64,000 nt of DNA, taken from the NCBI GenBank assembly GCA_963807405.1, contig CAWEBU010000006.1, positions 1,383,733 through 1,447,732 on the forward strand, given 5' to 3'. The stretch comes from an uncultured Acidobacteriota bacterium (GTDB lineage: Bacteria > Acidobacteriota > Vicinamibacteria > Vicinamibacterales > UBA2999). This document shows, piece by piece, positions 17,580-64,000 of this stretch (its first letter is position 1; each line of letters begins with the position of its first letter). Below the pieces are notes generated by a model. The model saw only the letters and a list, made by a program, of their open reading frames with translations. It was not told the origin of the DNA and ran no database searches. A program made the position numbers and the translations under genes.

Positions 17580-20500
17580 CTAGAACGAGTACTTGACCGC
17601 CAGCTGGATGATGCGGCCGTCCTCGGCGGTCGTGATCTGGCCAAACGGCGTCGTGCCGAAAGTGCCGCTGGGGTTGCTGAAGCGGGCCTGGTTCCAGAGG
17701 TTGAAGGCTTCGACCCGGGCCTGCACACGGTGCCGGCCGGCGAAGTGGAAGTTCTTGAAGACCGACAGGTCGGTGCGCTGGAACCCGGGGCCCCGCACGC
17801 TGTTGCGGCCGGCGTTGCCCGGACGCTCGCCCGAGGCCGCCAGGCTGCGCGCCACGAAGCAGCTCGTGTCGAACCACTGCGCCGTCGTGCGCGGTCCGTT
17901 GTTCGGATCGCACGTCACGTCGGGGCGCTGCGTCTGGTAGCGGATGTCGAGCACACCACCCTGATTGACCGAGAACGGGAAACCCGTCTGCGCCTGGTAG
18001 ATGCCGTTCAGCTGCCAGCCGCCGGCAATCGCCCGCAGCGCCACCGGCTTGTCCTCGAGGCGCGGCAGTTCGTAGCCGAAGCTCAGCACGAAGCGATGAC
18101 GCGCGTCGAACAGCGCCGGCCCCTTCTCGGCCGCCAGGGCGGCGTCGATGCTCGCGTCGTCGCCCTGCTGCACCGGCAGCACGGGACGCGACTCGCCGCC
18201 GATGTTCAGGCCTGACACGTGGTCGGTGGCCTTGCCGAGCGTGTACGACGCCAGCATGTTGAAGCCGCGCGTCGGCAGCAGCCGCACGCTCGTCTGCAGC
18301 GAGTCGAACCAGGACTGCGCCACCGAGAAGGTCGGCCGCACCAGCGCGAAGGCCGGCATGATCCGTGCGCCGCGTGTCGTCTGCCCCGGCGTGTAGACGC
18401 CCGGGTTGATCTCGAGGAACATCGGCAGGTTGTAGCCGCGCGAGCCGACGTAGGCGACCTCGGCGCCGATCTTGCCGGCGAACTGGCGTTGCGCCCCGAC
18501 GTTGAAGTGATACGCGTAGGGCGACTTGAACTGGTCGCCCCAACCGATGATCGTCAGATTGGCCGGGAACGGGTTGGGCGGCCCGGCCACCGCCGCCAGC
18601 GGGTCGGCCAGCGTGATCGGCGTCGGCGTGTTGAGCTCGACGAGCGGCGTGAAGGGCGGCGAGAGCACGCCGCTCTGGAAGAAGTCGCCCTGGCCGGCCA
18701 GGGCATCGTAGAAGACGCCGAAGGCGCCGCGAATGCTGGTCGTGCCGTCCCCGAACGGATCCCAGGCCGCCGACAGGCGCGGGGCGAAGTTGTTCTTGTC
18801 GGTCGGCACGATGCCGCGCGGCACGCCGCTGTCGCCGGCGTAGACGAGACCCGGTCGGCGCGTTCGGATAGACGGTGGACTGCTGCCCGGTGCGGAAGCC
18901 GGTCAGGGCGTCGTTCTTGTCGATGAACGGGGTCGGCAGCTCGTAGCGCAGCCCGAGGTTGACCGTCAGCTGCGACGTGACGCGGAAGTCATCCTGGATG
19001 TAGCCGGCGAAGAGCCAGCCGTAGCCGTCCTGGATGGCCTGGGTGGTCGTGGCCCGCGCCTGTGACGGCAGGCCGAGCAGGAAGTCGGCGGCGCCGTTGC
19101 CGGTGAAGCCGCCGTTGAAGGAGAGGTCGCCGTTGGGCCGGTTGATGAACGCGATGTTCATCGCCTCGCGGCGCACGTCGACGCCGAACTTCAGCGAGTG
19201 CCGGCCGGCGATCCAGGTGACGTCGTTGGCCGCCTGCCACACGTGGTTGACGCGCTTCACGAACGGCTGCTGGGGATCGCCGAGCGCCGAGGTGCCGCCG
19301 CCGAAGAAGCCGGCGACGTTGAACGACGGCAGGCCCGCCGCCAGCGGATTGGTGTTGGCGAAGTTGATCCCGAAGGCGCGCGGATCGAGACCGCTCGTCA
19401 CCGCCGGATTGGCGCTGATGCGGTTGATCGAGACCCGCGCCTGGTTGATGACGTTGGAGGCAAAGACGTAGTTGTGCGAGACCAGTCCGTCCTGCAGGGT
19501 GGCGAGCGCCTTCTGGTCGACGGCGGCGATGACGCGCGGCGTCGTCCGCTCGGTGCCGCTCCGCATGTAGCGCACGAGCACCGACTGCTTCTCCGAGACC
19601 TGGGTGTCGAAGCGCAGGCCGAACTGGTCACGCACGTCGTTGACGGTCGGCGAGACGATGTAGCGGTTGCCGGGAGCGTTCGGCAGCGGCACGAACTCGC
19701 TCAGCAGGCGCGTGGCGACCGGGCTGATGCGGCCGGCGGGAATCGTGTTGTTCGGGAACGGCAGGCCGGTCAGCGGATCGCGGATGGTCGTCGCGCCGAA
19801 GTTGCCGGCCCGCTGCGCTGCCGACAGCACCAGCACGTTGTTGGTGATGCCGGCGTCGTTGCGGAAGCCCTCGTAGTAGCCGAACCCGAACAGCCGGTTC
19901 TTGACGACCGGACCGCCGAGCGCGGCGCCGAACTGGTTCTGCTTCAGCTCCGGCTTGGGCTGGCTCCCGGGCGCGAAGTAGTTGCGCGCCTGCAGCTTGT
20001 CGTCGCGATTGAACTCCCAGGCCGCGCCCGAGAAGGTGTTGCTGCCCGACCTGGTCACGACGTTCACGACCGACCCGGCGTTGCGGCCGTACTCGGCCCC
20101 GAAGGCGTGGGTCAGGATCTTGAACTCCTGGATGGCGTCGGGGGGCGGCCGCAGCACGAAGCCGGTGTTGAAGGTGTCGTTGTTGGTGGCGCCGTCGAGC
20201 AGGAAGTTGTTCGACTGGTTGCGCATGCCGTTGACGTTGAAGCCCCCGGTGACGTTGCCGAAGCCGCCCGGCGTCGCATCGCCGCCCTGCCCGCCGAGGC
20301 CGGTGGGTGGCGCCACCACGCCAGGGATGAGCGTGCCGAGTTGGGTGAAGTTGCGGCCGTTGAGCGGCAGGTCGACCACCTGCTGCTCGTCGATGACGAT
20401 GCCGCGGGTGGCGTTGGCCGTCTCGACCAGGTTGGCCTGCGCGGTCACGGTCACGGTCTCGCTGACCTGCCCGACTTCCATCTGGAAGGCGACGCGCGAG

Positions 20501-20805
20501 GTCTCGGTCACGGTGACGCGGACGCCTTCCTGCCGGGCCACCCGGAAGCCGGTCAACGAGGCGTTGACATCGTAGACACCGGGTTGGAGCAGCGGCACCG
20601 TGTAGAGCCCGTCGGCGCCGGTCACCGCCGTGCGCACGGCGCCGGTGGCCGTGTTGGTGGCTTCGATCGTGACGCCGGGCAGCACACCGCCCGAGGCGTC
20701 GACCACGAGGCCGTTGATCTGTCCGGTGGCCTGCGCCAGCACGGCCGTGACCGACGATGCCATCAGGCACACCGTCAGGAGTCCCATCCTCGTCATCACC
20801 TGCAT
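17580..20805 (-). pseudogene. TonB-dependent receptor with N-terminal carboxypeptidase-regulatory-like domain, disrupted by a +1 frameshift near 18853
   Basis: The N-terminal part is in frame with ORF 17542-20862 (signal peptide, GVTIEATNTATGAVRTAVTGADGLYTVP, plug region LPLNGRNFTQL). The C-terminal part is ORF 17580-18824, ending in the terminal ...VKYSF. The junction reads YPNAPTG|LVYAGDSGVPRGIVPTDKNNF once one base is removed. This may be a sequencing error. Confidence 0.85.
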
Positions 20806-20898
20806 GCTCACGACCTCCAGACTGACGACAGCAGTGAACCCGACGACGCGGCAGGTTGTCAATCATCCGCCCGGCACGGCGCGTTACACTACCGCCAC

Positions 20899-23112
20899 AT
20901 GTCGTCGCGCGTCGTGCGCTCGTGGATGGTGGTGGCGGCGCTCGTCGGCGTCGGTTCGGCCAGCGGTCAACCCCTGTCGGTGTCGTCGAGCGACGGCCGC
21001 CGCACGCTCTCCGCCGTGCGCGCCCCGGCGCCGGTCGTCATCGACGGCGTCCTCGACGACGCCGTCTGGCAGACGGCGCCGGCCGCCGACCACTTCGTGC
21101 AGTCGGACCCGCGCGAAGGCCAGCCGGCCACCGAGGCGACCGAGGTCTACGTGGCCTTCGACGACGAGTACCTCTACATCGCGGCCAGGTTGCACGACAC
21201 CGACCCGGCCGGCATCGTCGTCAACGACATCCGCAAGGACTTCGCCGGCGCCGAGCAGGACACCTTCGAGGTCCTGCTCGACACCTTCGCCGATTGGCGC
21301 AACGGCTTCATCTTCGCCACCAACCCCGGCGGCGCCCGCGCCGATACCCAGGTCGCCAACGAAGGGCGCGACGTCAACCCGAACTGGGATGCCGTGTGGT
21401 GGGTGGCGTCGGCCACCTCGAGCGACGGCTGGACGACCGAGTTCCGCATTCCCTTCAAGACCCTGCGCTTCGAGCCGGGCGACGGCCACCTGTGGGGCCT
21501 GAATTTCGCCCGCCGGATCCGGCGCAAGAACGAAGCCACCTACTGGTCACCGGTCGCCCGCGCCTTCAGCATCGTCCGCGCGTCGTCGGCCGGCACGCTG
21601 AGCGGCCTGCCGGATTTGGCGCAGGGGCGCAACATCCGCGTCAAGCCGTACCTGCTGGGCGGGGCCGTGCGCCCGCTCGGCGGCACCGGCTTCGCGCTCG
21701 ACCGCAGCGCCGGCCTCGACGTCAAGGCCGGGCTGTCGCCGTCGCTCACTCTCGATGCCACCGTCAACCCCGACTTCGCCCAGGCCGAGGCCGACGAACA
21801 GCAGGTCAACCTGACGCAGTTCAGCCTCTTCTTCCCGGAGAAGCGCGAGTTCTTCCTCGAGAACTCCGGGGTCTTCTACTTCGGGGACATCCCGCGCAAC
21901 CAGCGCCAGACGAGCCGCTTCCGCCCGCCCGAGGAAGACCTGCTGCTCTTCTTCAGCCGCCGCATCGGCCTGACCGACGGCGGTGCCCAGGTGCCGCTCT
22001 ACGGCGGGCTGCGGGTGACGGGCCGGACCGGCAAGTACGGCCTCGGCGCCCTCAGCATGCAGAGCGAAGGGACGGACGACCGCCCCGGGCAGAACTACTC
22101 GGTGGCCCGCGTGCGCCGCGATGTCTTCGGCAACGCCGACATCGGCGCCATCGTCATGTCGCGCCAGTCGTCCAGCGACGGCAACGACTACAACCGCGTG
22201 GCCGGCGTGGATGCCAACTTCCGGGTCTTCAAGAGCCTCAACCTGAACGGGTTCGCGGCCCGCTCGGAGACGCCGGGGGAAGCGCGCCGTCAGGGCACCG
22301 CCAAGGGCTCGATCGGCTGGGAGGACAGCCGGCTGCGCCTGCAGTACTCCCTGATGAACGTCGACGAAGGCTTCAAGGCCGACATGGGCTTCGTCCGGCG
22401 CACCGGCGTCCGGCGACACTTCCTGGACTGGGCGTCGTTCCTGCAGCCGGACTGGCTGCGCACCCGCGGCATCCGACAGGTGCAGCCGCATGCCCGCGCC
22501 TTCTACTACTACTCGCCGAACGGCGACCTGGCCACGCGTCAGGCTCACATGGCGGTCCAGGTGACGTGGAACAACGGCGGCCGCATCGAGTACGCCCTCG
22601 AGCCGCGCACCGAGTCGATCGCGCGCCCCTTCCTGATCCGCCCCGATGTCGCCATCCCGGCTGGCCGCTACGACTGGACCCAGCACCTGTGGGTCGTCGA
22701 GTCGGACCACAGCCGCGCGCTGTCGTTCTCGGCGCGCATCACGCACGGCGATTTCTGGCGCGGCCGCCAGAAGAACGTGCAGACGAGCGTGCTCTACCGC
22801 CCCACCTACCGGCTGTTCTTCGACGTCGGCCTGCAGGTCACCGACATCGCGCTCGACGCGCCCCAGACCTCGTTCGTGACGACGCTCGTCAACTGGCGCT
22901 CGGGCTATTCGTTCAACACCAACATGTTCCTCGATGCCCTGGTCCAGTATCGCAACGACATCCGGCAGTTCTCGTCGAACGTCCGCTTCAACCTGATCCA
23001 CCGGCCGCTCAGCGACTTCTTCCTCGTCTACAACGAACAGCAGTACACCGACGGCCGGGTGCCGGCCGGGCGCGGCCTGGTCGTCAAGTACACGCACCTG
23101 TTCGCGTTCTGA
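20899..23112 (+). CDS. DUF5916 / CBM9-like domain outer-membrane-type protein
   Basis: ATG at 20899 followed by a signal peptide (MSSRVVRSWMVVAALVGVGSASG). Contains VIDGVLDDAVWQTAPAADHFVQSDPREGQPATE..TEVYVAFDDEYLYIAARL. The C-terminus ends ...KYTHLFAF, as in a beta-barrel. The upstream part of ORF 19198-23112 is antisense to the TonB receptor. Confidence 0.8.
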   Translation: MSSRVVRSWMVVAALVGVGSASGQPLSVSSSDGRRTLSAVRAPAPVVIDGVLDDAVWQTAPAADHFVQSDPREGQPATEATEVYVAFDDEYLYIAARLHDTDPAGIVVNDIRKDFAGAEQDTFEVLLDTFADWRNGFIFATNPGGARADTQVANEGRDVNPNWDAVWWVASATSSDGWTTEFRIPFKTLRFEPGDGHLWGLNFARRIRRKNEATYWSPVARAFSIVRASSAGTLSGLPDLAQGRNIRVKPYLLGGAVRPLGGTGFALDRSAGLDVKAGLSPSLTLDATVNPDFAQAEADEQQVNLTQFSLFFPEKREFFLENSGVFYFGDIPRNQRQTSRFRPPEEDLLLFFSRRIGLTDGGAQVPLYGGLRVTGRTGKYGLGALSMQSEGTDDRPGQNYSVARVRRDVFGNADIGAIVMSRQSSSDGNDYNRVAGVDANFRVFKSLNLNGFAARSETPGEARRQGTAKGSIGWEDSRLRLQYSLMNVDEGFKADMGFVRRTGVRRHFLDWASFLQPDWLRTRGIRQVQPHARAFYYYSPNGDLATRQAHMAVQVTWNNGGRIEYALEPRTESIARPFLIRPDVAIPAGRYDWTQHLWVVESDHSRALSFSARITHGDFWRGRQKNVQTSVLYRPTYRLFFDVGLQVTDIALDAPQTSFVTTLVNWRSGYSFNTNMFLDALVQYRNDIRQFSSNVRFNLIHRPLSDFFLVYNEQQYTDGRVPAGRGLVVKYTHLFAF

Positions 23113-23947: not shown

Positions 23948-23972
23948 TCGGCCACGGTGCGGCCGCGGTGGC

Positions 23973-32068: not shown

Positions 32069-32800
32069 CAGCGCCCGCCTCCTCCTCGGTCGATGTCTAC
32101 ACCGTCCTCACCGGGGGGGTGACCGATGCTCTCGAAGCGCGCCTCGCACCCCGGTTGTCGCAGGACGAAGCGGCACGGGCGGAGCGCTTCGTCCGCCCCG
32201 TCGATCGACGGACGTTCGTCGTCGCCCGCGCCCTGGTCCGCGCCACGCTCTCGGCCTACGCCCCGATCGCGCCCGCGGACTGGCGGTTCGAGACCAATCA
32301 GCACGGCTGCCCGGCGGTCATCGCGACACAGGCCGGCCATCCGCGCCTGCGCTTCAACCTGTCGCACACGACCGGCCTCGTCGCGCTCGCCGTCACGCGC
32401 GGACACGACGTGGGCATCGATGTCGAGCAGGTCGACCGCGTGGTGCGGGAGGACATCGCCGGGCGCTACTTCGCCGCCGACGAGGTGCGGGACCTGCGCG
32501 CGCTCGCCGCGGAGGCGCAGCCGCGGGCCTTCTTCGAGGTACTGGACGCTCAAGGAGGCCTACATCAAGGCGCGCGGCATGGGCCTCGCCATTCCGCTCG
32601 GCGACTTCGCCTTCATCCTGCGGCCGCCGGCCGCGCCGGCGATCCGCTTCGTCGACGGCTTCGACGATCGACCCGGCCGCTGGCAGTTCTGGCAGACCTG
32701 GCCGACCACCCGGCACCGCCTGTCGCTGGCCGTGGCGCGCGACGGCGACGACCTGCCCGTCACGATCGCCGACATCGCCCCGGAGACGCTGGCGCCGTGA
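32065..32800 (+). pseudogene. Sfp/EntD-type 4'-phosphopantetheinyl transferase, disrupted by a +1 frameshift near 32539
   Basis: The N-terminal part (..RLSQDEAARAERF..., NLSHTTGLVALAV, GIDVEQ) is in frame with ORF 31297-33657. The C-terminal part is in ORF 32126-32800 (WTLKEAYIKARG). The junction reads PRAFFE|YWTLKEAYIKARG after removing one G. The putative TTG start at 32065 overlaps the upstream stop. Confidence 0.75.
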
Positions 32801-34891: not shown

Positions 34892-34898
34892 CGTTCGC

Positions 34899-36608
34899 AT
34901 GCTCCGGAGACATGACATGCCTACCCGCCGCCTCACCGCCCCCGTCGCCGCCCTCGTCGTCGCGTCGCTCACCCTGACCCTGCAGGCCGGCAATGCGCCC
35001 TATCGCGCCCGCGGCGGCATGGTCGTCTCCCAGAGCGACATCGCCTCGGAAGTGGGCTGGACAGTCATGCGCGAGGGCGGCAACGCCATCGACGGCGCCG
35101 TCGCGACCGCTCTGGCGCTGGCCGTCACGCACCCCACCGCCGGCAACATCGGCGGCGGCGGCTTCATCGTCTACCGCGGCGCCGACGGCATCGCCACCAC
35201 GTTCGACTTCCGCGAGATGGCGCCGGCCGGCGCCTCGCCCACGATGTGGATGAAGGACGGCAAGTACGACTTCGACCTCCATCACAACACGCACCGCTCG
35301 GTCGGCGTCCCCGGCACCGTCGCCGGCCTCTACATGGCGCACCAGAAGCTGGGCAGCAAGCCGTGGAAGGATCTGGTGCTCCCGGCCGTGGCGCTCGCGC
35401 GCGACGGCTTCGAGATCAGCGAGGGCCTGGCGAGTTCCCTCGAGCGGATGATTCCCGAGTTCAAGAAGTATCCGGCCTCGCTGGCCCAGTTCTCGAAGAA
35501 CGGCGTGGCCTACAAGGCCGGCGAGACACTGAAGCAGCCGGATCTGGCGAACTCCCTGCAGCGCATCGCCGACCGCGGGCCGGCCGGCTTCTACGAGGGC
35601 GAGACGGCCGAGCTCATCGAGAAGGAGATGAAGGCCAACGGCGGCCTCATCACGCGCGACGACCTCAAGAAGTACGCCGCCAAGGAGCGCGTGCCGCTCA
35701 AGGGCACCTACCGCGGTCACGAGATCATCGGCATGCCGCCGCCCAGTTCCGGCGGCATCGCGGTCATCCAGATGCTGAACGTGCTCGAGGCCTTCGACCT
35801 CAAGGCCAACGGCTACGGCTCGGCCCAGAACCTGCACCTGGTGGCCGAGTCGATGCGTCGTGCCTTCGCCGATCGCGCGCAGCACATCGGCGATCCGGAC
35901 TTCAACACCGGCATCCCGGTGGCGCAGCTCATCGCGAAGGACTACGCGGCCCAGCTCCGCAAGACCATCAACCCGAACAAGGCCTCGGTGTCGTCAACGA
36001 CGTCGTTCACCTGGCCGACCGAGTCGCAGGAAACGACGCACCTGTCGGTCGTCGACGGCAAGCAGAACGCCGTCTCGATGACCTACACGCTCGAGTACGG
36101 CTACGGCTCGCGCATCGTCGTGCCCGGCGCCGGCTTCCTGCTCAACAACGAGCTCGGCGACTTCAACTCGGCGCCCGAGATGACCGACGAGCGCGGCAAC
36201 ATCGGCACCAAGCCGAATCTCGCGCTGCCCGGCAAGCGCCCGCTCTCGAGCATGGCGCCGACCATCGTCACCAGGGACGGCAAGCTGTTCATGGTGACGG
36301 GCTCGCCCGGTGGCCGCACCATCATCAACACCGTGCTCATGACGATCATGAACGTCGTCGACTACGGCATGAACGCGCAGGAAGCGGTGGACGCCGGCCG
36401 CATGCACCACCAGTGGCTGCCCGATCGCCTGAGCATGGAGCGCTACGGCTTCTCGGCCGACACCATCGCCAGGCTCAAGGCGATGGGCCACAACGTGACC
36501 GAGGCCGGCGGGCAGGGCGTGGCCGAGGTGATCGTCGTCGGCAAGGACGGCGTGCTCGAGGGCGGCGTCGATGGGCGGGCGTCGGACGGCGGCGCCGCCG
36601 GCAAGTAG
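34899..36608 (+). CDS. ggt: gamma-glutamyltransferase
   Basis: About 569 aa with a signal peptide. Contains GGNAIDGAVATALALAVTHPTAGNIGGGGF and the catalytic-Thr region ETTHLSVVD, plus the C-terminal GSPGGRTIINTV. Alternative starts are at 34824 and 34917. Confidence 0.92.
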   Translation: MLRRHDMPTRRLTAPVAALVVASLTLTLQAGNAPYRARGGMVVSQSDIASEVGWTVMREGGNAIDGAVATALALAVTHPTAGNIGGGGFIVYRGADGIATTFDFREMAPAGASPTMWMKDGKYDFDLHHNTHRSVGVPGTVAGLYMAHQKLGSKPWKDLVLPAVALARDGFEISEGLASSLERMIPEFKKYPASLAQFSKNGVAYKAGETLKQPDLANSLQRIADRGPAGFYEGETAELIEKEMKANGGLITRDDLKKYAAKERVPLKGTYRGHEIIGMPPPSSGGIAVIQMLNVLEAFDLKANGYGSAQNLHLVAESMRRAFADRAQHIGDPDFNTGIPVAQLIAKDYAAQLRKTINPNKASVSSTTSFTWPTESQETTHLSVVDGKQNAVSMTYTLEYGYGSRIVVPGAGFLLNNELGDFNSAPEMTDERGNIGTKPNLALPGKRPLSSMAPTIVTRDGKLFMVTGSPGGRTIINTVLMTIMNVVDYGMNAQEAVDAGRMHHQWLPDRLSMERYGFSADTIARLKAMGHNVTEAGGQGVAEVIVVGKDGVLEGGVDGRASDGGAAGK

Positions 36609-37448: not shown

Positions 37449-39407
37449 CTAGCGCGCGGCGCCGCCGTCGAGCGCGAAGGCGATGAGACGCGCGGGAATC
37501 CCCTTCTCCTGATCGCCGACCGTGAAGGCGACGTACTGCCGGCCGCCGTGCAGATAGGTCATCGGCGGACCGGTCTGCACGCCGGGCAGCGCCGTCTCCC
37601 AGATCGTCCTGCCGGTGGCCTTGTCGAGGGCACGGAACACCGGCTGGCCGCCCCAGCCCTCGCCGGCGAAGAGCAGCGTCTTCGTGGCCAGGAGCCCGGC
37701 TCGCGAACGGCTGCCCGTGGGTGGAATCGTCACGCCCTTCAGCAGCGGGTGATCGCGGATGGCCGGCGGCGTGTCGCCGTTGGCCACCTGCCATGCGATG
37801 GTCGCCGCGCGTGAGGTCGAGGGCGGTGATACGGCCGTACGGCGGCTTCACGACCGGCAGGCCGTCCACCGTCGGCACGCCGCGCTGCTGCACCGCCACG
37901 TAGTCCATGTCCGAGTCGGCGCTCTTCTCCAGCGCGACGAGCGACGGCTGGGTGGCCGAGGCCACGTACATGCAGGCCGGTCTCGGGATCGGCCGCCCCG
38001 TGCTCCCACTGCGCGCCGCCCTGCACGCCGGGCAGCAGGATGGTGCCGATCGTGCCGTCGGGCGCCGCCGCCAGCGACGGCGGCTGGTACATCGCGCCCA
38101 GGCGATAGCCCTCGAGCGCCTTCAGCGCGCGGGCGCGAATCTCCGGCGTGAAGTCCACGACGTCGTCGAGCGTGAAGCCCTGTCGATCGAAGGCGGGCGG
38201 CCGGGTGGGAAACGGCTGGGTGGCGGCGGTGCGTTCGCCGGGCACGTCGCTCTGCGGCACGGCGCGTTCGACGATCGGCCACACCGGCTCGCCGGTCACG
38301 CGATCGAAGACGTAGGTGAAGGCCTGCTTGGTCATGAGTGCCACGGCCTTCACCGTGCGCCCGCCCACGGGTACGTCGATGAGCATCGGCGCGGTGGTGT
38401 TGTCGTAGTCCCAGATGTCGTGATGAATCTGCTGGAAGTGCCACACCACCTTGCCGGTGCGCACGTCGAGGCAGACCAGACTCGACGAGTAGACGTTGTC
38501 GCCCGGCCGGTGGCCGCCGTAGAGATCGCCGGTCGGCGCCTCGACCGGCAGGTAGACGTAGCCGAGCGCGTCGTCGGCCGAGAACGGCGCCCACACGCCG
38601 GCGTTGCCGGTGTACTTCCAGGAGTCGCGCTGCCAGGTCTCGACGAACCGCTCGCCGGCCTGCGGGATCGTGTTGAAGCGCCACAGCTCCTTGCCGGTGC
38701 GGACGTCGAAGCCGCGCACGAAGCCGGGCACGTTGGCCATCGTCCTGGGCCGGAAGCCGAGCTCGAGCGCGGGGCCCACGACGATGACGCCGTTCGTGAT
38801 GACGACCGGCGAGCTGCTGCCGATCGGCGCCAGCGGATCGAACTCGCCGCGGCCCAGGTTGCGCTTGAGGTCGACCAGGCCCTCGGCGCCGAACGACGGC
38901 ACCGGACGGCCGCTGCGGGCGTCGAGCGAGACGAGCCGAAACCCCGGCGTCACCACCACGATGCGCGCCTCGGTGCCGTCGCTCCAGTAGGAGACGCCAC
39001 GGCCGGAGTTGCGCCGCGGCGCGCGGGCCGCGCGCTCCCCTTCGTCGAGCGTCCACCGCCAGCGTTCGACGCCGGTGGCCGGGTCGAGCGCCACGACGTC
39101 GCGGTTCAGGCCGGCGGTCATGTAGAGCAGGCCGTCGACGTAGAGCGGGGCGGCCTCGTTCTTGAACTCCGGCTTCGGGCCGTAGGGGCCGAGGTCGCGC
39201 TCCCACGCCACGCCCAGCCGGGCCACGTTGTCGCGCGTGATCTCGGTCGAGCGGCGCGTAGCGCAGGCTGCGGTTGTCGCCGTGGTAGGCGCGCCACTCG
39301 CCGGCCGGCGCCGGCGCTGCTGGCGGTGTCGGCGCCTGGGCGCCGAGCGTGACGACCGACAGCAGCAGCGTTGCCGCGACAGCGTGACAGCGGGACGGCA
39401 ACGTCAT
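37449..39407 (-). pseudogene. PQQ-dependent (quinoprotein) dehydrogenase, glucose/quinate-shikimate family, with three +1 frameshifts
   Basis: Four frame segments are involved (ORFs 37848-39521, 37739-39226, 36670-37971 and 37449-37787). The junctions, each repaired by removing one base, are RYAPLD|EITRDNVARLGVAW (~39245), DPETGL|MYVASATQPS (~37972) and LDLTRGD|IAWQVANGDTP (~37800). Signal peptide MTLPSRCHAVAATLLLSVVTLGAQA and beta-propeller W-motifs are present (VWHFQQIHHDIWDYD). Confidence 0.85.
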
Positions 39408-40384: not shown

Positions 40385-42262
40385 GATGCGCGCTCCCCCT
40401 GGAAGACATGCAGGCGCTGCACCGCCGACTCGATGGCGGCCGAGGCCGTCTGGCCGAGCCCGCAGATCGAGGCATCGCGCATCGCCTGGCCCAGTTCGCT
40501 CAGGAGCGCCAGCCGCTCCGGTGCCGCGGTGCCGGCGGCCCGCAGCTGCTCGAGCAGCTCACGCTGCCGCACCGTGCCGACCCGGCACGGCACGCACTGC
40601 CCGCAGCTTTCGTCCTCGAAGAAGGCCGCGATCCGGCCGAGCAGATCGGGAAGATCCGCGGTGTCGTCGAACGCCATCACGACGCCCGAGCCCAGCGTGA
40701 CGCCGGCCTCCCGCGTGTCCTCGAACGTCATCCGCAGGTCCAGAGACTCGGGACCGACGAACATGCCCGCCGCGCCGCCGAGCAGGACCGCCTGCAGCGG
40801 ACGCCCGCCGGCCACGCCGCCGGCCCGCGCCATCACCTCGCCGAGCGTGACCCCGAACGGGAACTCGTAGAGGCCCGGCTGCGCGACATGGCCCGACACG
40901 CAGAAGAGCCGTGTGCCGGTGGATTTCGCGGTGCCGGTGGCGGCCCAGGCGGCCGCCCCGTCGACCAGAATCGGCAGCACGTTGGCCAGCGTCTCGACGT
41001 TGTTGACGACGGTCGGCTGGCCGAACAGGCCGACCTGACTCGGGAACGGCGGCTTCGACCGCGGCTCGCCGCGCTTGCCCTCGAGCGAGTTGAAGAGCGC
41101 CGTCTCCTCGCCGCAGATATAGGCGCCGGCACCGCGCCGGACCTCGATCTCGAAGACGTGACCCGACCCGGCGATGTCGGGTCCGAGCAGCCCGGCGCCG
41201 CGCGCGGCGGCCGCGGCCTCGCAGGATGCGGGCCTCGGCGTCGGGATACTCCCCGCGCACGTAGAGGAACCCGCGTTCGCTGCGCGTGGCGATGCCGCAG
41301 ATGGTCATTGCCTCGACGATCGCGAACGGATCGCCGGCGACCAGCACGCGGTCCTTGAACGTCCCGGGCTCGGACTCATCGGCGTTGCAGACGACATGGT
41401 GCGGCAGCGCCGGCTCGGCCGCCACCGCCTCCCACTTCACGCCGGTGGGAAAGGCGGCGCCGCCGCGGCCCATGAGCCGCGCGGCCTTCACTTCGGCGAT
41501 GACCCCCGCCGGCCCGAGCTCGATGGCGCGCGCCAGCGCGCGGTAGCCGCCGGCAGCGCAATAAGCCTCGAGGCTCGTGGGGTCGACGACGCCGACTCGA
41601 GCGAGCAGGCTCAGCCCGGGCTCGCCGGCCTGCGGCACGACCGACCGCAGCTCGTCGAGCGATTCCTTCAAGTGCCCCACGGTGCCGGGCCCGAGCGCGC
41701 TTGCCACCGCGGCCGCCGAGCTCACCGGCGCCACGACGCGGCGCTCGGCCGAATCACCCGCGCGCACGATGAGCGCCGCCGGCGCCCGTTCGCACTGCCC
41801 CAGGCACGGGCTGCGCATCCAGGTCGTGTCACGGCCGGACGGCGCCGCGCCCTCGGGCCCGAGCGTCGCCGTCAGCGCCTCGCAGAGCGCCTCGGCCCCG
41901 CGCACGCGGCAGGCGATGTCGTCGCACACGTGGGCCACGGTAGCGGCCCGCGGTGCGGTCGCAAACAGGTGGTAGAAGGTGAGCACCCCCCACGCCTCGG
42001 CCGGCGGCACGACCAGCCGCTGGCAGATGTAGTTCATCGCGCCACGGCTGACCCAGCCGACGCGGTCCTGGACGGCGTGGAAGGCGGGCAGCAGGAGATG
42101 GCGCTGCTGCTCCGCCGCCGCCACCCCGCCACGCGACGTGCGGCCGTCGCGCTCGATATCCCGGGGGCCGCCCTCCCAGCCGGAGCCGGGGGGCCCGAGC
42201 AGCCGGTCGACGGCGTCGCGCTCAGCGGCGGTCGCCGCCGGGCCGATGACGTGAATATCCAC
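40381..42262 (-). pseudogene. fused NuoE-like/NuoF-like NAD(H)-binding diaphorase subunit (FdsG/FdsB-type), +1 frameshift near 41221
   Basis: The NuoE-like region is CDDIACRVRGAEALCEAL...SPCLGQCERAP. NuoF motifs are GRGGAAFPTGVKWE, GAGAYICGEETALFNSLEGKRGEPR, ESCGQCVPCRVG and ICGLGQTA. The junction reads YPDAEARIL|EAAAAARGAGLLGPDI after removing one base. GTG start at 42262 with a GAGGAG RBS. Confidence 0.85.
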
Positions 42263-42294: not shown

Positions 42295-44256
42295 CTACGC
42301 GCCGACCGCTTCGATCTGCACGGCAGCGGCCTTGAACTCGGCCGTGCCGGACTTCGGATCGACCGCGTCGATGGTGAGGTGGTTGGTGGCGACCTCCTCG
42401 GGAAAGTGAAACGTCATGAACGTCAGCCCCGGCCGCAGTGCCGGATCGATGTGAACGGGGGCCACCACGCTGCCCCGCCGCGACCGGATGCGCACCGTCT
42501 GCCCTTCGCTGAAGCCGAGCCGGAGGGCGTCCTCCGGTGAGAGATCGATGGTCTCGCCGCGGCGTACCGGCGAGGCATAGGGGCCCGTCTGCACGCCCGT
42601 GTTGTACTCCTCGAGGCGTCGCCCGGTCGTCAGGCGGAAGGGATACTCGGCGTCGACGGCTTCAAAGGGCAGCGCGTGCTCGACGACCGAGAACGGCGCG
42701 CGCGGACCGGGCACGGGACGATCCCACAGCCGTCCGTGCAGGAACGCTTCGCCCGGATGCGTCTCGTCATAGCACGGCCACTGCAGCCCTCCCTCCGCGG
42801 CGAGCCGGTCGTAGCTCATGCCGCCGTGCACCGGCGAGAGACCGCGCAGTTCGTCCCAGATGCCCTCGGCGTCGGTGGCCGGCCACGTCGCGCCCATGCG
42901 GCGCGCCAGGTCGACGATGATCGTCAGGTCGTCACGGCTCTCGCCGAGTGGCGCCTTGGTCCGGCGCACGCGCTGCACGCGCCGTTCGCTCGACGTCACG
43001 GTGCCGTCGGACTCGAAGGCGCCGGCGGCCGCCGGCAGCACGACATCGGCCAGTTCCGCCGTGGCCGTGCGCATCACGTCCTGCACGACGAGAAACTCCA
43101 CGTTGCGGAGCACGCGGCCGGAGTGGTGTTGGTCGGCTTCCGACTGCGCCGGGTTCTCGCCGATGACGTAGAGCGCCGTGAGGTCACCGCGCCCCATCGC
43201 CTCGAACATGCCGGTCAGGTGCCAGCCGCGGACCGGCGGCACGGTCACCCCCCAGGTGCGATCGAAGGCGGCCCGCACCTGGTCGTTCTCGACGTGGAGG
43301 AAGCCGGGCAACCGGTCGGGCAACGCGCCCATGTCGCCGCCGCCCTGCACGTTGTTCTGCCCGCGCAGCGGATTGATGCCCGAGCCCCAGCGCCCGACGT
43401 GCCCGGTGAGCAGCGCCAGGTTGATCAGGGCGAGCACGTTGTCGACGGCGTTGTGGTGCTCGGTGATGCCGAGCGTCCAGCAGATCATGGCGCGCGGCGC
43501 GGTGGCGAAGCCATGGGCCATCTCGCGGATGACGGCGGCCGGCACGCCGGTGGCCTGCTCACCGCGCTCGAGCGTCCACGGCAGCACGGCCGCCTTGTAG
43601 TCCTCGAACCCGGTCGTGGCGTGATTGATGAAGTCGCGGTGCGCCAGGCCCGCCACGATGATCTCGCGCGCCATGGCATGGGCCAGCGCGATGTCGGTGC
43701 CGACGTCGAGCCCGGCCCAGAGGTCCGCCCAGCGGGCCGACGAGGTGCGCCGCGGATCGATGGCGAACAGCCGCGCTCCCCGCTGCAGGCCCTTGAGCAG
43801 GTGGTGGAAGAAGATCGGATGCGTCTCGCGGGCGTTCGAGCCCCACAGCAGGACGCAGTCCGTCTCCTCGATCTCGCGGTACGACGTGGTGCCGCCGCCC
43901 ATCCCGAAGACCGCCGCCAGACCGGCGACGCTCGGCGCGTGTCAAGTGCGGTTGCAGCTGTCGATGTTGTTCGAGCCGATGACGGTGCGGGCGAACTTCT
44001 GCGCCGCGTAGTTCATCTCGTTGGTGCCCTTCGAGCAGCTGAAGAGGCCGAACGTCGACGGACCGCGGCGCGCCACCGCGTCGCGGAACCCCGCCGCCGC
44101 CTTGTCGAGCGCTTCGTCCCAGGTCGCCTGGCGAAGCGCCCCGCCGCGAACGTCGCGCACCAGGGGATGTGTCAACCGTTGCATGCGAGCCATACGCGGA
44201 AGAGTAACACCTCGGGCTCGCGGCGGCATCCGGCGGGCCACCGCGCCGGCGCTCAC
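42295..44256 (-). CDS. fdhA: formate dehydrogenase catalytic (molybdopterin) module, selenocysteine-containing (TGA at 43942-43944 read as Sec)
   Basis: ORFs 43942-44256 and 42295-43902 are in the same frame, separated only by TGA: ...NNIDSCNRT-U-HAPSVAGLAAVFGMGGGTTSY... This is the catalytic Cys/Sec position of formate dehydrogenases. Molybdopterin-domain motifs follow (NPLRGQNNVQGGGDMG). It lacks the N-terminal 4Fe-4S domain. The GTG start overlaps the upstream stop as GTGA. Confidence 0.85.
43909..43933 (-). promoter_or_regulatory. SECIS-like hairpin downstream of the in-frame UGA
   Basis: The mRNA reads GAGC-GUCGCC-GGUCU-GGCGGC-GGUC: a 6-bp GC-rich upper stem with a GGUCU apical loop. 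The loop begins 19 nt after the UGA, the same register as GGUCU in the E. coli fdhF SECIS (recalled from memory). Confidence 0.6.
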
Positions 44257-56322: not shown

Positions 56323-57633
56323 TCAGTGCGCGGCGCCGAGCGCGGCGGCCAGCGCCTCGAGCCGCGGTGGAATGCGAGCCGCCACGACCTCGAGGGCGAG
56401 GCGGGCGGCCAGGGCCGGCGGCAGGTCGACGGCGTGCCCGAGCGTGGGCTCGACCACTTCGGGGAACTTCGCCGGATGCGCCGTGGCGAGCACGATCGTC
56501 GGGGCCTCATCGCTGGCGCGGGCCGCCTTCCCGGCGCCGGCCACGCCGACGGCCGTGTGCGGGTCGGCGATGTAGCCGGCCGCCGCCTGCAAGGCGCCAA
56601 TCGTGGCCCGCACCTCGGCGTCGCTGACGACCACGCCGGAGATGTCCGCGCGCATCCGCTCCAGGTCGTGACCGTAGAGCCAGATCAGGCGTTCGAGGTT
56701 GCTCGGGTGGCCGACGTCCATGGCGCTGGCCAGCGTGGGCACGGCATCGGACGGCTCGAAGGCGCCGCTGGCCAGGTAGCGCGGAAACGGGTCGTTGATG
56801 GTCGTGGCGGAGACGAAATGCCCGATCGGCACACCGCGTCGCGCCGCCATGACGCCGGCGGTGAGATTGCCGAGGTTGCCGCTCGGCACGACCACGGTGG
56901 GCGGCGGCGCGGTGGCCGGCAACTGCAGCACGGCCCAGGCGTAGTAGGCCATCTGCGGCAGCAGGCGGCCGATGTTGATCGAGTTGGCGGAGGTCAGACG
57001 ATGGACGGCGGAGAGCGACGAGTCGGCGAAGGCAGCCTTCACCAGCCGCTGACAGTCGTCGAACGTGCCCTCGACGGCCAGTGCGGAGACGTTGTCGCCG
57101 AGCGTGGTGAACTGCACTTCCTGGACGCGGCTGACGCGGCCGTGCGGATAGAGCACGACCACGCGCGTCCCGGGCAGGCGGTGGAACGCCTGCGCCACCG
57201 CCCCGCCGGTATCACCCGAGGTGGCGACCAGCACCGTCAGCGGCCGGGCGGGGTCGTCCGCCGCGATGGCCGCCAGCCATCGCGCCATGGTGCGCGCGCC
57301 GACGTCCTTGAAGGCCAGGGTCGGCCCGTGGAAGAGCTCCAGCACGTAGCGGCCATCGCCCAGGGCGACGAGCGGCACCGGGAAATCGAGCGCCGCCGCC
57401 ATCAGGTCATCCAGCGCGCCGGCCGCGAAGGTGTCCGCCGCCAGCGGCGCTATGAGTGCCGCCGCCACCTCCGCGAACGAGCGGCCGCGCAGCGCCGCGA
57501 ACTCGGCCGCCGTCATCGCGGGAATCGCCGTCGGCACGTAGAGGCCGCCGTCTGGCGCCAGACCTCGACGCACGGCCTCGGCGAGCGTGACCGGCGTGTC
57601 GTGGCCGCCGGCGCGGGTGCTGATGAAGGGCAC
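56323..57633 (-). CDS. thrC: threonine synthase
   Basis: GTG at 57633 (VPFISTRAGG...) with the PLP-lysine region HGPTLAFKDVGAR and ATSGDTGGAV. About 436 aa. The start overlaps the thrB stop by 1 nt (TAGTG). Confidence 0.92.
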   Translation of the reverse strand: MPFISTRAGGHDTPVTLAEAVRRGLAPDGGLYVPTAIPAMTAAEFAALRGRSFAEVAAALIAPLAADTFAAGALDDLMAAALDFPVPLVALGDGRYVLELFHGPTLAFKDVGARTMARWLAAIAADDPARPLTVLVATSGDTGGAVAQAFHRLPGTRVVVLYPHGRVSRVQEVQFTTLGDNVSALAVEGTFDDCQRLVKAAFADSSLSAVHRLTSANSINIGRLLPQMAYYAWAVLQLPATAPPPTVVVPSGNLGNLTAGVMAARRGVPIGHFVSATTINDPFPRYLASGAFEPSDAVPTLASAMDVGHPSNLERLIWLYGHDLERMRADISGVVVSDAEVRATIGALQAAAGYIADPHTAVGVAGAGKAARASDEAPTIVLATAHPAKFPEVVEPTLGHAVDLPPALAARLALEVVAARIPPRLEALAAALGAAH

Positions 57634-58575
57634 TAGCGGACTCCCTCGAGATCGACGACGCGCGCGCCGGTCGTGCCGACCGGCGAGACCCACAGATCGG
57701 CACCGGGACCGGATTCCCGCCGCGTAGGCGGCGGCCATCGCCTCGCCCACGGCACGGGCGGCCTCGAGCCCCGCCGCCAGCGCGAAGATCGACGGGCCCG
57801 AGCCCGACAGGCTGCAGCCGAGCGCGCCGGCCTGATGCGCCGCCTCCTTGACGCGCGCGAACCCCGGCACGAGGGCGGCACGCTTCGGTTCCGCCACGTG
57901 GTCGACCAGCGCCCGCGACAGGAGCGCCAGGTCGCCCGTGTACAGCGCCGAGACGAGGGCGCCGAGATTGGCCCACTGACGCACCGCCGTGGCGAGCGGC
58001 AGCGAATCGCCGAGCAGGGCGCGCGCCGTGCCGGTGTGAATCTCGAGGTGCGGGTGGAGGACGGCGCACGACAGGCCGTCCGGCACCGGCAGCCGCACGA
58101 TGTCGGGCGGATCGACGCTGCGCGCCAGCACGAACCCGCCGTAGAGCGACGGCGCCACGTTGTCGGGGTGGACGGCGCCGCAGCCGGCGCGTTCGCCTTC
58201 CATCGCCGCCTGGCACACGAGATCGAGCGCGGCCGGACGGCCGAGCAGCTCGTTGACCGCCACGACCGCGGCCACCGCGCTGGCGCCGCTGCTGCCGACG
58301 CCGCTGGCGAGCGGCAGGCCCTTGTGCACGTCGAGCCGGATGCCCTGCCGGGTGCCGAGCGCGGCCAGCAGCGCCTGGGCGGCGGCGCCGGCGGTATTCT
58401 TGGCAGGATCGCGGGACAACCGGCCTCCGTCGCCAGTGATCTCGCCGATGAGGACGCCGGGCGCGTCGGTCAGGCGCGCCACGACGATGTCGCCCGGCTC
58501 GTCGAGCGCGAAGCCGAGCACGTCGAACCCGGCCGCGACGTTCGAGACGGTGGCCGGGGCGAACGCGGCAATCAT
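57633..58575 (-). pseudogene. thrB: homoserine kinase, +1 frameshift near 57711
   Basis: MIAAFAPATVSNVAAGFDVLGFAL..., GHMP motif GLPLASGVGSSGASAVA, then AMAAAYAAGI|GPGADLWVSPVGTTGARVVDLEGVR* after removing one base. The C-terminal 30 aa lie in ORF 57633-57881. The ATG overlaps the thioesterase stop as ATGA. Confidence 0.85.
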
Positions 58576-59048: not shown

Positions 59049-61014
<1,966 letters not shown>

Positions 61015-61057
61015 GCGCGCGTTTCCTGCAGTGACGCAGCCGCGACTGCGACACCAC

Positions 61058-61156
61058 AGTTGTAACGGGGTCTGTCACCGTCACGAGTTGTAACGGGGTC
61101 TGTCACCGTCACCGGCAGCAAATCAGTTGGTGACGGTGACAGACCCCGTTACAACT
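61058..61156. repeat. REP-like composite element, second locus: two direct 27-nt copies plus one perfect inverted copy
   Basis: AGTTGTAACGGGGTCTGTCACCGTCAC occurs at 61058-61084 and 61086-61112. Its exact reverse complement is at 61130-61156, leaving a 17-nt loop. It lies between the convergent 3' ends of speA and the DUF349 gene. Confidence 0.9.
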
Positions 61157-61243
61157 CGTCGCATGCCGGAAAGGCCCGTACGTAGTTCGAGCGGCAAGTC
61201 TCCCGCGGGAGACCGGCCGCTCGGGTGATGGCTGGGGCGCGCG

Positions 61244-64000
61244 CTACGCGCGGGACACGGGACGGCGACGGCCGTCGAGCACGCGGCGGACCGCCTTGTC
61301 GAAGCGCTCCTGCAGCGGCTTGCGCACGTCCGGTGAGACCGGGCCCAGCCGCAGCCAGGCCGACTGCGCGCTGCGCAGTTCCTGATCGGCCGCCCGCTGA
61401 CGCGCTTCCTCGGCCTGCCGCGCCGCGCCGGCGCCCATGGTGTTGGCGGCCAGCGCCTCGCGCCACTGCCTGGCGAGCAACTCGGCCGGCGACAGCGCCG
61501 CCGTGGCCTTGGCGGCCCCGCCGTCATTCGGCGCCAGCGCCTCGACCTTCGCGGCCAGCTTCTCCATGCGCTTGGCGGTCACGGTGGGATCGAGTTCGCC
61601 ACCGGTGAACGCATCCGGCCACCGCGTCACCAGGGACAGCAGCGCGCCGTTCACGCGCTCGGCCAGCGGCGTCAGCACGTGGCGCGGCAGCTCCGGGCCC
61701 TGCAGCCAGCGCGCCCGCGCCGCCTGCACCTTGTTGTAGAGATCGTCGGGCATCTCCGCGCCCTCGTCGGGCACGAGCGCCTCGATCTCGGCCACCGCCG
61801 TGTCGCGGTCGACGAACTTGGTCTGGATGGCTTCCTGATCGCGGTTCTTGAAGCGCTCGAAGAACAGGTCGCAGGCGGCGCGGAAGCGCTCCCACACCTG
61901 ATCCGACTTGCTCTTCTTGACCGGACCGATCGTCTTCCACTCGACCTGCAGCGCCTTGAGCCGCGCCGACGCCTGTTCCCAGTTGGTCGACTGCGCCAGC
62001 TGTTCGGCCTCGGTGATGAGCGCTTCCTTCTTCGAGAGGTTGTCGCCCCAGTCGCTCTTGCGCTGCTTCATGTCGGCCTGGCGGCGGGTGAAGAACCCGT
62101 CACAGGCCTTGCGGAAGCGCTCCCAGATGGCTTTCTCGCGGCCGCGCGTGACCGGGCCGATGGCCTTCCACTCGGCCTGCAGGGCCTTCATGGCGTCGGC
62201 CGTCCGCACCCAGTCGGTCGAGTCGGACAACGCTTCGGCGCGCGCGCACAGCTCTTCCTTCTTCTTCAGCGCCTCCTGGCGTTCGACCGCCTGCTCGGCG
62301 AAGAAGTCCTTGCACTTCTCGTAGACCTGGCCCTGCGCCGCCTTGAAGCGGGTCCACAGCGCCTCGCCCTGCGAGCGCGGCGCCGCCGCCACCGGCTTCC
62401 ACTTCTCCTGCAGCTGCCGCATCTCTTCGGCGGCCTTGGCCGGTTCGGTGTCGGCCAGCGGGATCAGGGCTTCCATCTTCCCGCACAGCTCTTCCTGCAC
62501 CTGGACGTTGGCCCAGCGCTTCCACTCCTCGGCGTTGCGCAGCTCGTCGAGCCGCGGCTGCACGGCCGCGCGCACGGCCGACAGACGCACCGTGAGGTCT
62601 TCGCGGTCCTGCGGCGTCGGCAGCGGGCCCATCGTGCCGACGACCAGCTTGACGTCCTTGACGATGGTGTCGGCGTCTTTGAGGGACAGCGACTCGGCGG
62701 CCGCGCGCGCCTCGAGCGCCTGCACGGCGGCCTGCAGCCGCTGCAGGTTGTCCTGCTGCTGCTTCTGCTTGCCCTCGCGGACGGTGGCCTCGCCGGCCTC
62801 GAACGCCGTGGCCGCCGCCTGGAAGCGCTCGGCGAGCGCCGGATCGATCTCGCCCGTGCGCTGCACGGCCTGCCACTTGCGGCGCAGTGCCTGCCACTGT
62901 CCGCGCACGACGGCGTAGTCCTGGCCGACCAGCGTCTCCACCTCGTCGACGATCGACGGCGCCTGCGCACGCAGCTCGCGCGCTTGCTCCGCCGTTTCGT
63001 GCCGGCGTTCGGCCGCCTTGACGGCGTCGTCGAAACGGCGCTGCAGATCTGCCGCCCACGCGGCGGGCATCGGCGCCAGGGCGTCCCAGGCGGCGCGGGC
63101 CTCCGCCAGCGCGGCCGGGATGTCGTCGCCCGACAGGCCTTCGACCTGCTCGCACAGGCGCACGCGCTCGGCCTGCTCCTCGCGCTGGGCCGCGGCGGCC
63201 CGGGCGGCCGTGGCACGGCTGGCTTCGTCGGCAGCGAGCGCGCTGCGGACGGCGTCCGACAGGGTCTCGAACTCGGCGACGATCGAGGGATCGATGTCGG
63301 CGTCGGCGTTCAGTTCCACCCACGCCACGCGGGTGGCGGCATAGCCGTTCCCGCACCGCTGCCAGGTCGGCGGTGGCGCCGAGCTCGGCCATCTGGCGGC
63401 TCAGCTCGCGGGCGCTCTGCTGCTCGGCTTCGCGGTACTGCGGCGCGGCCGGGGCGGCGGTCTCGACGGGCGGCGCGGTCAGGGCCGCCGCCAGGGCCTT
63501 GGCCCGCTTGGCCACGGCGCGCGACTTGGCGCGCTGGGCAATCGTGCCGAGCTGGTCGGCCGAGAGGCCCGACAGCCGGTCGAAGGCAGCCACGGCGGTC
63601 TCGGCGTGTTCCCCGTTGACGGCCACGGCTTCGAGCTCGCCGGCATCCGACAGACGTTCGAGTGCCAGCAGCCGCGTGCTGGCATCCCCGGCGTTGCGGG
63701 CGACGCCCCCGAGCAGCTTGGCGTCGGTCAGTTCGGCCACGGCGGCCTGACGCGCCGGTTCAGGCGCCGTCGAACGGGCCAGCGTCGCCAGATCCCTGGA
63801 CCGCCCGAGGGCGGCCAGCGCGCGCACGGCGGCGGCCGCGCCACCGGGCTCGCCCGCCAGCGCCACGATCCGCTGCACGGCGGCATCACGCACGCCGGTG
63901 TCGCTGTCGTTCCGAACGACGGCGGCGAGGACCTCGGCATCCGCCAGCCGGCCCAGGGCCGCCCGTCGAACGCGCGTGTCGGAGTCTTCGGTAGCTACCT
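61244..64000 (-). pseudogene. HEAT-repeat / DUF349-repeat protein, 5' end outside the window, +1 frameshift near 63347
   Basis: The C-terminal 694 aa carry repeated DUF349-type units (W..I.GPV......W.RF..A.D.FF). The N-terminal part is in another frame, with HEAT-like repeats (DSDTRVRRAALGRLAD, DSDTGVRDAAVQRIVAL) running to the window edge. The junction reads DLAAVRE|GYAATRVAWVELN after removing one base. Confidence 0.75.

Follow-up and report, generated by a model that had tools for sequence, protein, structure and literature searches.

Protein sequence that continues in a neighbouring reading frame may reflect a decaying gene, a recoded one or a faulty assembly. Such disruptions occur nine times, in seven conserved genes, within the 64,000-nt stretch of DNA analysed here (the window, to which all positions refer), which belongs to an uncultured soil bacterium of the Vicinamibacterales (Acidobacteriota). 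An earlier note on this DNA had ascribed them to a technical artefact and not to pseudogenisation, arguing that every disruption could be repaired by removing one G from the plus strand. Comparison with orthologues supports the conclusion but not the argument: the disruptions are very probably single-base insertion errors in a long-read metagenome consensus, and A, C or T is the better-fitting extra base at five or six of the nine sites.

Nine +1 disruptions in seven genes

Frame switches within a strand were called with a codon-usage Viterbi model trained on the window itself. Switches were placed at 18852/3, 32539/40, 37791/2, 37971/2, 39245/6, 41221/2, 57701/2, 59307/8 and 63349/50, at most 10 nt from all the positions proposed earlier; the remaining same-strand switches in the window are ordinary gene boundaries or a recoded stop. 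The net +1 character of the disruptions is likewise confirmed, the downstream frame being the upstream frame plus one base in 9/9 cases. In DNA alignments of sister loci, the relatives have exactly one gap column at each site (9/9). The comparison with orthologues suggested in the earlier note was also carried out, and once the junctions are restored, the proteins can be aligned with intact orthologues almost from end to end. Thus, the Viterbi model, the Pfam matches and the orthologue alignments, at both the protein and the DNA level, concur on one extra base at all nine sites. The affected genes are the following.

17580..20805, minus strand, TonB-dependent receptor gene (CarboxypepD_reg, Plug and OMP_b-brl_4), repaired product of 1074 aa
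32089..32800, plus strand, Sfp-type 4'-phosphopantetheinyl transferase (PPTase) gene, repaired product of 236 aa
37449..39407, minus strand, PQQ-dependent dehydrogenase gene with three insertions, repaired product of 651 aa
40381..42262, minus strand, NuoE-NuoF-like fusion gene, repaired product of 626 aa
57633..58575, minus strand, thrB (homoserine kinase), repaired product of 313 aa
59049..61014, plus strand, speA (biosynthetic arginine decarboxylase), repaired product of 654 aa
61244..63893, minus strand, gene for a DUF349 protein, with an uncertain 5' end that perhaps lies beyond 63893

Repaired proteins are full length and 77–92% identical to intact orthologues. The TonB receptor matches Pfam OMP_b-brl_4 in a single full-length stretch (1-838/838) and is 92% identical to P0241, a protein also of 1074 aa. 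In the PPTase, which has Pfam matches to AASDHPPT_N and ACPS, the junction falls inside the ACPS stretch, and residues 1-236 align with the L003 orthologue in one HSP. The PQQ dehydrogenase matches Pfam PQQ in one stretch (1-595/595), with 88–90% identity to intact orthologues. The NuoE-NuoF-like fusion represents the diaphorase subunit in an operon for an NAD-linked formate dehydrogenase; it has Pfam matches to 2Fe-2S_thioredx, Complex1_51K, SLBB and NADH_4Fe-4S, with the junction inside the Complex1_51K stretch, and a single HSP covering residues 1-626 gives 81% identity to the L003 protein. The sole in-frame stop in the window, a TGA, occupies the Sec/Cys position of the formate dehydrogenase. 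Unrepaired, thrB has a reading frame that runs on into thrC; its orthologues in L001 and L002 have 313 aa, the length of the repaired product. The repaired speA product is 90% identical to its orthologues, which have 653–655 aa. Finally, the DUF349 protein contains four DUF349 matches (Pfam) and aligns with the L002 protein at 77% identity, one HSP covering residues 9-882. The TonB-receptor, PPTase, PQQ-dehydrogenase, NuoF-like, thrB, speA and DUF349 genes are almost certainly intact in the organism.

Constraint downstream of the shifts

Downstream of the shifts, amino-acid identity is 0.76–0.93 and the differences lie mainly at third codon positions. Segments after the shifts are as conserved as those before them, which indicates that no drift has followed the supposed mutations. 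The codon-usage model remains in coding states on both sides of the shifts, including between the three hits in the PQQ dehydrogenase. Relaxed constraint of the pseudogene type (loss of codon bias, more non-synonymous change) was sought downstream of the shifts and was absent. A search of the window for nonsense mutations, 1-bp deletions and larger out-of-frame indels found none; lesions in the window are exclusively 1-bp insertions.

Deposited products, relatives and sequencing platform

Five broken products are on record as public proteins in their exact form, together with eight intact products of the window.

P0370, thrB–thrC fusion of 750 aa (56323-58575)
P0377, speA fragment of 538 aa
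P0391, DUF349 fragment of 694 aa
P0392, middle fragment of the PQQ dehydrogenase, 495 aa
P0406, C-terminal fragment of the TonB receptor, 414 aa

All recorded window products trace to one NCBI and ENA contig of 3,726,184 bp, and the errors are therefore part of the deposit itself. The two nearest relatives, L083 and L084, are long megabase contigs with Flye-style names, and their gene calls are fragmented in genes other than those hit in the window. Over the shared 18 kb, private single-base events were counted as follows.

ERZ25039603 contig_7531 (2.94 Mb), 27 private 1-bp insertions versus 5 private 1-bp deletions
ERZ25039524 contig_1647 (2.2 Mb), 19 private 1-bp insertions versus 4 private 1-bp deletions

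Insertions are thus about five times commoner than deletions. Their positions differ among the sister genomes, and none is common to the window and the relatives. No frameshifts were found in the five short-read relatives searched (L001, L002, L003, L085 and L086).

A broader comparison covered 57 loci, classed as Nanopore or short-read by their record titles and names. In 15 loci titled as MFD Nanopore MAGs (324 kb), 20 switches are +1 and 7 are –1; in 42 loci with short-read-style names (740 kb), the numbers are 7 and 8. The excess in Nanopore-named loci is four-fold and restricted to +1 (p = 4e-6, versus p = 0.14 for –1). The rate in the window, 0.11–0.14 per kb, lies within the Nanopore class. 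The MFD-LR MAGs come from Nanopore reads alone, with assembly by Flye and a single round of Medaka polishing (PMC12313526), and frameshift errors in soil assemblies are reported to be more numerous with ONT than with HiFi (PMC13087279).

Collectively, several observations argue for an artefact: downstream constraint is intact, and all lesions are of a single mutation class; two long-read relatives carry errors of this class, and short-read ones do not; and the excess in Nanopore-named loci is confined to +1. The source contig would derive from Nanopore reads, as its 3.73-Mb size and the Flye-style names of its sister contigs suggest; most probably, the assembly rests on Nanopore reads alone and was produced with Flye and Medaka. 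Extra bases may enter during consensus building or polishing, at places with low coverage or little agreement among reads. A point against this reading is that the profile, insertion-biased and outside homopolymers, departs from the homopolymer indels of the textbook Nanopore profile, and a search of the literature for a description of it found none.

The main competing view is that the insertions truly exist in the organism and arose not long ago: the sampled population would have gained nine of them in seven genes, either during a mutator episode or as pseudogenes formed in a burst. The extra bases are indeed present in the deposited assembly, a search for a same-species genome found none that could contradict them (nearest protein identities are 88–92%), and both thrB and speA can be dispensable in some environments. 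Decay of bacterial genes, however, typically proceeds through a mixture of nonsense mutations and deletions, with a bias towards deletion, whereas here a single mutation class is seen, and codon bias and amino-acid conservation are undiminished after each shift. Moreover, two related long-read contigs carry the same class at positions that bear no relation to those in the window, as do 0/5 short-read relatives, and over the 57 loci the excess follows the sequencing platform. Real insertions are therefore improbable.

Position and identity of the extra bases

To locate the extra bases, every single-base deletion within 9 nt of a site was scored against the orthologue columns, and DNA parsimony was also checked. 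The sites are listed below; for site 1, the interval comprises all equally scoring deletions.

Site 1, 18849..18854, minus strand, one extra base in the TonB-dependent receptor gene
Site 2, 32538..32539, plus strand, extra G (GG versus G) in the 4'-phosphopantetheinyl transferase gene
Site 3, 37799..37801, minus strand, one extra base in the PQQ dehydrogenase gene, with a gap in L083 and L084
Site 4, 37971..37973, minus strand, one extra base in the PQQ dehydrogenase gene, with a gap in L083 and L084
Site 5, 39244..39246, minus strand, one extra base in the PQQ dehydrogenase gene, with a gap in L083 and L084
Site 6, 41217..41223, minus strand, one extra base in the NuoE/NuoF-like (FdsGB-type) gene, with the switch at 41221/2
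Site 7, 57711..57718, minus strand, one extra base near the 3' end of thrB
Site 8, 59315..59317, plus strand, one extra base in speA (arginine decarboxylase)
Site 9, 63347..63349, minus strand, one extra base in the DUF349 gene

At site 1, three relatives read GGG-CTC on the sense strand versus GGGTCTC in the window. Any deletion at 18849-18854 yields YPNAPTGLVYAGD, so that the protein score is tied for A, C and G, and DNA parsimony points to a plus-strand A at 18849. At site 2, L083 reads TTCGA-GTACTGG versus TTCGAGGTACTGG in the window, and the best score is obtained by removing either G, with AFFEYWTLKEAY as the product. Preferences on the plus strand are marginal at two sites in the PQQ dehydrogenase gene: deletion of G at 37800/1 scores 74.7 and of T at 37799 scores 73.6 (site 3), while T at 37971 scores 76.8, versus 75.8 for either G at 37972 or C at 37973 (site 4). 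At site 5, removal of C at 39244 gives the orthologue consensus PLDQITRDN with a score of 69.8, versus 67.0 for removal of G. DNA alignment of site 6 has one gap in both L084 and L003, and deletion scores are flat over 41217-41223, favouring neither position nor base. At site 7, where the next frame carries on the conserved C-terminus ADLWVSPVG, removal of a C at 57716-18 scores 78.8, versus 74.6 for G at 57711/2, with five cluster-mates of 313 aa each as the scoring reference. At site 8, L001 and L002 read CTCG-GCGAG versus CTCGAGCGAG in the window; removal of A at 59317 restores the consensus HRLGEI with its conserved Gly (63.8), versus 57.9 for removal of G. At site 9, scored with one orthologue only, L002 reads CGCG-ACGGC versus CGGGAACGGC in the window, and removal of T at 63348/9, which restores Asp, scores 76, versus 72 for G at 63347.

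These scores bear on the proposal that Gs were inserted specifically into the strand as written, for instance because the backbone was a single read or because software or a file introduced them. A removable plus-strand G does exist at every site and its deletion restores the frame in 9/9 cases, as the earlier note had stated; any neighbouring base works equally well, however, so the repair is uninformative in DNA that is 35% G, where a G is nearly always in reach. Orthologue scoring is best for G at only two of the nine sites (2 and 3), whereas A is preferred at sites 1 and 8, C at sites 5 and 7, and T at site 9 and marginally at site 4. In the sister contigs, too, the inserted bases are a mixture that follows base composition. 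Among 48 pooled insertion events, C was inserted 18 times, G 16, A 7 and T 7, matching the G+C content of the genome (71%), and the inserted base equals a neighbouring base in 20/48 events, as expected for random insertion. A specific insertion of G is largely refuted and has become highly improbable.

Homopolymers at the sites are no longer than 3, and no motif is common to them, both in agreement with the earlier description; a search for k-mer enrichment around the 48 pooled insertions found none. Collectively, the extra bases have no fixed identity, strand preference, homopolymer context or motif context.

This context also bears on whether the shifts are decoded, with programmed +1 ribosomal frameshifting, transcriptional slippage or RNA editing rescuing the proteins. 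Every shift is +1 and the genes look functional on either side, as such decoding would require, but the sites have no shift motif in common and neither a stop nor a slippery run, the zero frame meets no stop within 50 to >1000 nt beyond most of them, orthologues are single-frame at all sites, and insertion positions vary between sister genomes; decoding is thus hardly credible. A related proposal, that the insertions are real and that the lineage tolerates scattered +1 shifts in essential genes through correction at the level of the transcript or the ribosome, would explain three related genomes with many differently placed insertions and proteins still under selection, and is extremely unlikely.

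Comparison with known systems and consequences

Single-base insertion errors of the consensus have a close counterpart in the frameshift (indel) errors of Nanopore-only MAGs, which are measured by protein-length tests of the IDEEL type (PMC9262707, PMC13087279, PMC12313526). As in such MAGs, single-base indels truncate or fuse conserved genes, their density varies by MAG and region, they are absent in short-read relatives, and broken proteins spread into databases. Descriptions of Nanopore indel errors emphasize homopolymers and low-GC, homopolymer-rich genomes (PMC12313526); here, in contrast, the genome is G+C-rich, the errors are biased towards insertion, and neither homopolymer nor motif is involved. 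Genuine frameshift pseudogenes resemble the present case in that several conserved genes, biosynthetic ones included, are broken by 1-bp frameshifts. They differ in that here constraint is kept downstream, nonsense mutations, deletions and larger indels are missing, and the events are private and not common to relatives, their occurrence following the assembly technology. The programmed +1 frameshift of prfB (release factor 2) shares the +1 direction and a functional protein encoded over two frames; unlike prfB, the window has no conserved shift site, no in-frame stop at the shift and no conservation of the shift in orthologues, and seven unrelated genes are hit.

The disruptions thus would have no biological significance, and the organism should be treated as having all seven genes intact. 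About one gene in eight is mis-called in the window, and the 750-aa 'thrB–thrC' protein is among the products that have already reached public collections. Analyses of pathway completeness or of pseudogenes would be misled for the source MAG and its long-read relatives. The excess in Nanopore-only MAGs is insertion-biased and has no tie to homopolymers, so that homopolymer-centred quality checks would miss it, and it may interest those who build or curate MAG catalogues.

Frame disruptions and their repair

The nine frame disruptions of the window are real in the sequence, with the exception of what had been claimed for G, and they are probably non-biological. A codon-usage model trained on the window's long high-GC3 ORFs, decoded with a seven-state Viterbi path (six frames plus non-coding), gave same-strand frame switches at the same nine sites that the earlier note had listed. 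At 9/9 switches, the downstream frame equals the upstream frame plus one base, as had been claimed throughout, and no '-1' event was detected in the window by this path.

Frame switches in the window, with repaired products compared with orthologues and fragments on public record
Site 1, 18852/3: TonB receptor; 1074 aa versus 1074 aa, 92% identity; recorded fragment 414 aa
Site 2, 32539/40: PPTase; 55% identity
Sites 3, 4 and 5, 37791/2, 37971/2 and 39245/6: PQQ dehydrogenase; 88–90% identity; recorded fragment 495 aa
Site 6, 41221/2: NuoF-like; 81% identity
Site 7, 57701/2: thrB; 313 aa versus 313 aa
Site 8, 59307/8: speA; 90% identity; recorded fragment 538 aa
Site 9, 63349/50: DUF349; 77% identity; recorded fragment 694 aa

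The list is complete for the window. The remaining same-strand switches are ordinary gene boundaries, since each coincides with the stop codon of the upstream gene, and a +0 to +2 switch near 10293 is noise beyond a natural stop. Four in-frame stops were rejected as disruptions: those at 1496 and 34615 are the fliF/fliG and rhodanese/DUF6116 boundaries, that at 37449 is where the PQQ dehydrogenase naturally terminates, and the fourth, at 43942, is a TGA occupying the Sec/Cys position in formate dehydrogenase.

Once a single base is deleted per site, the proteins match their Pfam families in single uninterrupted stretches (PQQ 1–595/595; OMP_b-brl_4 1–838/838), and the ACPS and Complex1_51K matches span their junctions. 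The restored junctions also hold against orthologues, the repaired proteins aligning end to end with intact ones, and in nucleotide alignments with sister loci the relatives carry a single gap column at every site.

Identity of the extra base

According to the earlier note, every site could be mended by removing a plus-strand G. This signature does not survive orthologue scoring and DNA comparison, which prefer A, C or T at several sites. All single deletions ≤9 nt from each site were scored against aligned orthologue columns, and the DNA was compared directly. On the plus strand, G is the best extra base at site 2 and, with a narrow lead over T (74.7 versus 73.6), at site 3; at site 4, T (76.8) narrowly leads G or C (75.8). 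The best base is C at 39244 for site 5, restoring the consensus LDQIT, and C within the CCC at 57716–18 for site 7. At site 8, removal of A at 59317 restores the conserved Gly of HRLGEI, and at site 9, removal of T restores an Asp. Protein scores tie A, C and G at site 1, where 3/3 relatives read GGG-CTC against GGGTCTC, in favour of a plus-strand A at 18849. No single deletion is best among those scored at site 6. With G making up 35% of the DNA and any nearby single deletion restoring the frame, a removable G carries no information.

Technical artefact versus gene decay

The proposal that the disruptions are a technical artefact and not decay is probably right, on grounds other than those first given: constraint, lesion spectrum, sister assemblies, sequencing platform and sequence context. 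Compared with the nearest orthologue, conservation downstream of each shift equals that upstream (amino-acid identity 0.76–0.93), and the differences are mostly third-codon-position changes, as also in the stretches separating the three insertions of the PQQ gene. The lesions consist of 1-bp insertions alone; nonsense mutations, deletions and larger indels are absent from the window's genes.

The closest relatives are two contigs, ERZ25039603 contig_7531 (2.94 Mb; loci L083 and L087) and ERZ25039524 contig_1647 (2.2 Mb; locus L084), both syntenic with the window's 16–46 kb interval. PQQ dehydrogenase and PPTase are intact in both. Their own fragmented gene calls concern gamma-glutamyltransferase, glycerol kinase, NuoF and FdhA, all intact in the window. 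In a three-way alignment of 18 kb of the window, L083 and L084 (MAFFT, faster mode), private 1-bp insertions outnumber private 1-bp deletions by 27 to 5 in L083 and by 19 to 4 in L084, and most of these insertions lie in well-aligned coding sequence. They are clustered, with 23 inside 4.5 kb of the formate dehydrogenase/NuoF operon of L083 (about 5300–9800) and dense groups at about 7100–8500 and 16100–17950 of L084, which suggests local consensus failure and not uniform error. Insertions represent ~83% of the sisters' private 1-bp events, so that the probability of 9/9 insertions is about 0.19 and the one-directionality of the window requires no special explanation. No frameshifts were found in L001, L003, L085 and L086, relatives with short-read-style contig names, nor in L002.

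Two further differences from the sister contigs were seen. Compared with both, the window has one more T, at 34894, within the conserved 5' leader of the gamma-glutamyltransferase gene (ATG at 34900); lying outside coding sequence, it was rejected as a coding disruption, and it may represent natural variation or else a tenth insertion error, a non-coding one. In L087, an IS-type transposase gene (DDE_Tnp_1; 13334–14410) adjoins the TonB receptor gene and is missing at the matching position in the window and L085.

All fetched loci ≥8 kb were scanned with the detector in a self-trained form. The 15 loci (324 kb) whose record titles name an MFD Nanopore MAG gave 20 '+1' and 7 '-1' switches, versus 7 and 8 in 42 loci (740 kb) with short-read-style contig names. 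The excess in MFD loci (p = 6e-6) is confined to +1 (p = 4e-6; for -1, p = 0.14). With 7 strict calls and 9 in total, all +1, the window's rate of 0.11–0.14 per kb fits the Nanopore class. Nanopore reads alone (R10.4.1) underlie the MFD long-read catalogue, for which Flye assembly was followed by a single Medaka polishing round; its authors looked for sequencing errors mainly by way of low coding density, in MAGs that are low in GC and rich in homopolymers (PMC12313526). Our literature search found no paper on an insertion-biased, non-homopolymer profile. We infer that the window originates from the MFD long-read project; if so, its source contig is probably part of a MAG under BioProject PRJEB58634.

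Candidate frame-switch calls differ widely by locus, from 0 in some MFD Nanopore loci to 5–9 per 22 kb in others; L050 (DASXVG010000043.1), L076, L029 and L049 were flagged in this respect, and L050, with a short-read-style name, has three +1 candidate calls. In L032, from a Gemmatimonadota MAG with a MEGAHIT-style contig name, a PQQ dehydrogenase homologue (about 9937–11891) aligns in two frames joining at about 10548–10551, and the stricter detector makes no call.

Among 48 pooled events, the inserted bases (C18, G16, A7, T7) follow genome composition, and they equal a neighbouring base in 20/48, about the expectation for random insertion. No 3-mer or 4-mer motif, such as a methylation site, is enriched in the 48 events after multiple testing, and the 'GGTC' and 'CTC-G' patterns suggested by the nine sites failed to hold up. 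Consensus errors in which both alleles at a variable third codon position are written in succession were rejected as an explanation, since the insertion slots favour no codon phase (7.8, 14.3 and 16.8 of 39).

Public records of the window

The window (G+C 71% across 64 kb) was placed in the Vicinamibacterales (Acidobacteriota) by protein searches, with MAG proteins of 88–92% identity as top matches. In a single scan against genome contigs, no match exceeded 81%. Exact look-ups found eight intact window proteins, and five broken products identical to the window-encoded versions, recorded from one NCBI and ENA contig of 3,726,184 bp, tying the window to a public deposit. After its shift, the thrB frame stays open into thrC, hence the 750-aa thrB/thrC fusion on record (protein P0370; window 56323–58575, minus strand). 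This fusion groups in one cluster with genuine 313-aa homoserine kinases.

The formate dehydrogenase TGA

The in-frame TGA of the formate dehydrogenase alpha-subunit gene (43942–43944, minus strand; 'CNRT*HAPSVAG' position) is most likely a selenocysteine codon. The Rfam scan of the window, hairpin included, gave no match, and the folding energy of this hairpin is unremarkable for its G+C content (z = 0.83). It spans 43912–43930, begins 14 nt downstream of the TGA and carries a GGUCU loop, which we take to be similar to the SECIS loop of E. coli fdhF.
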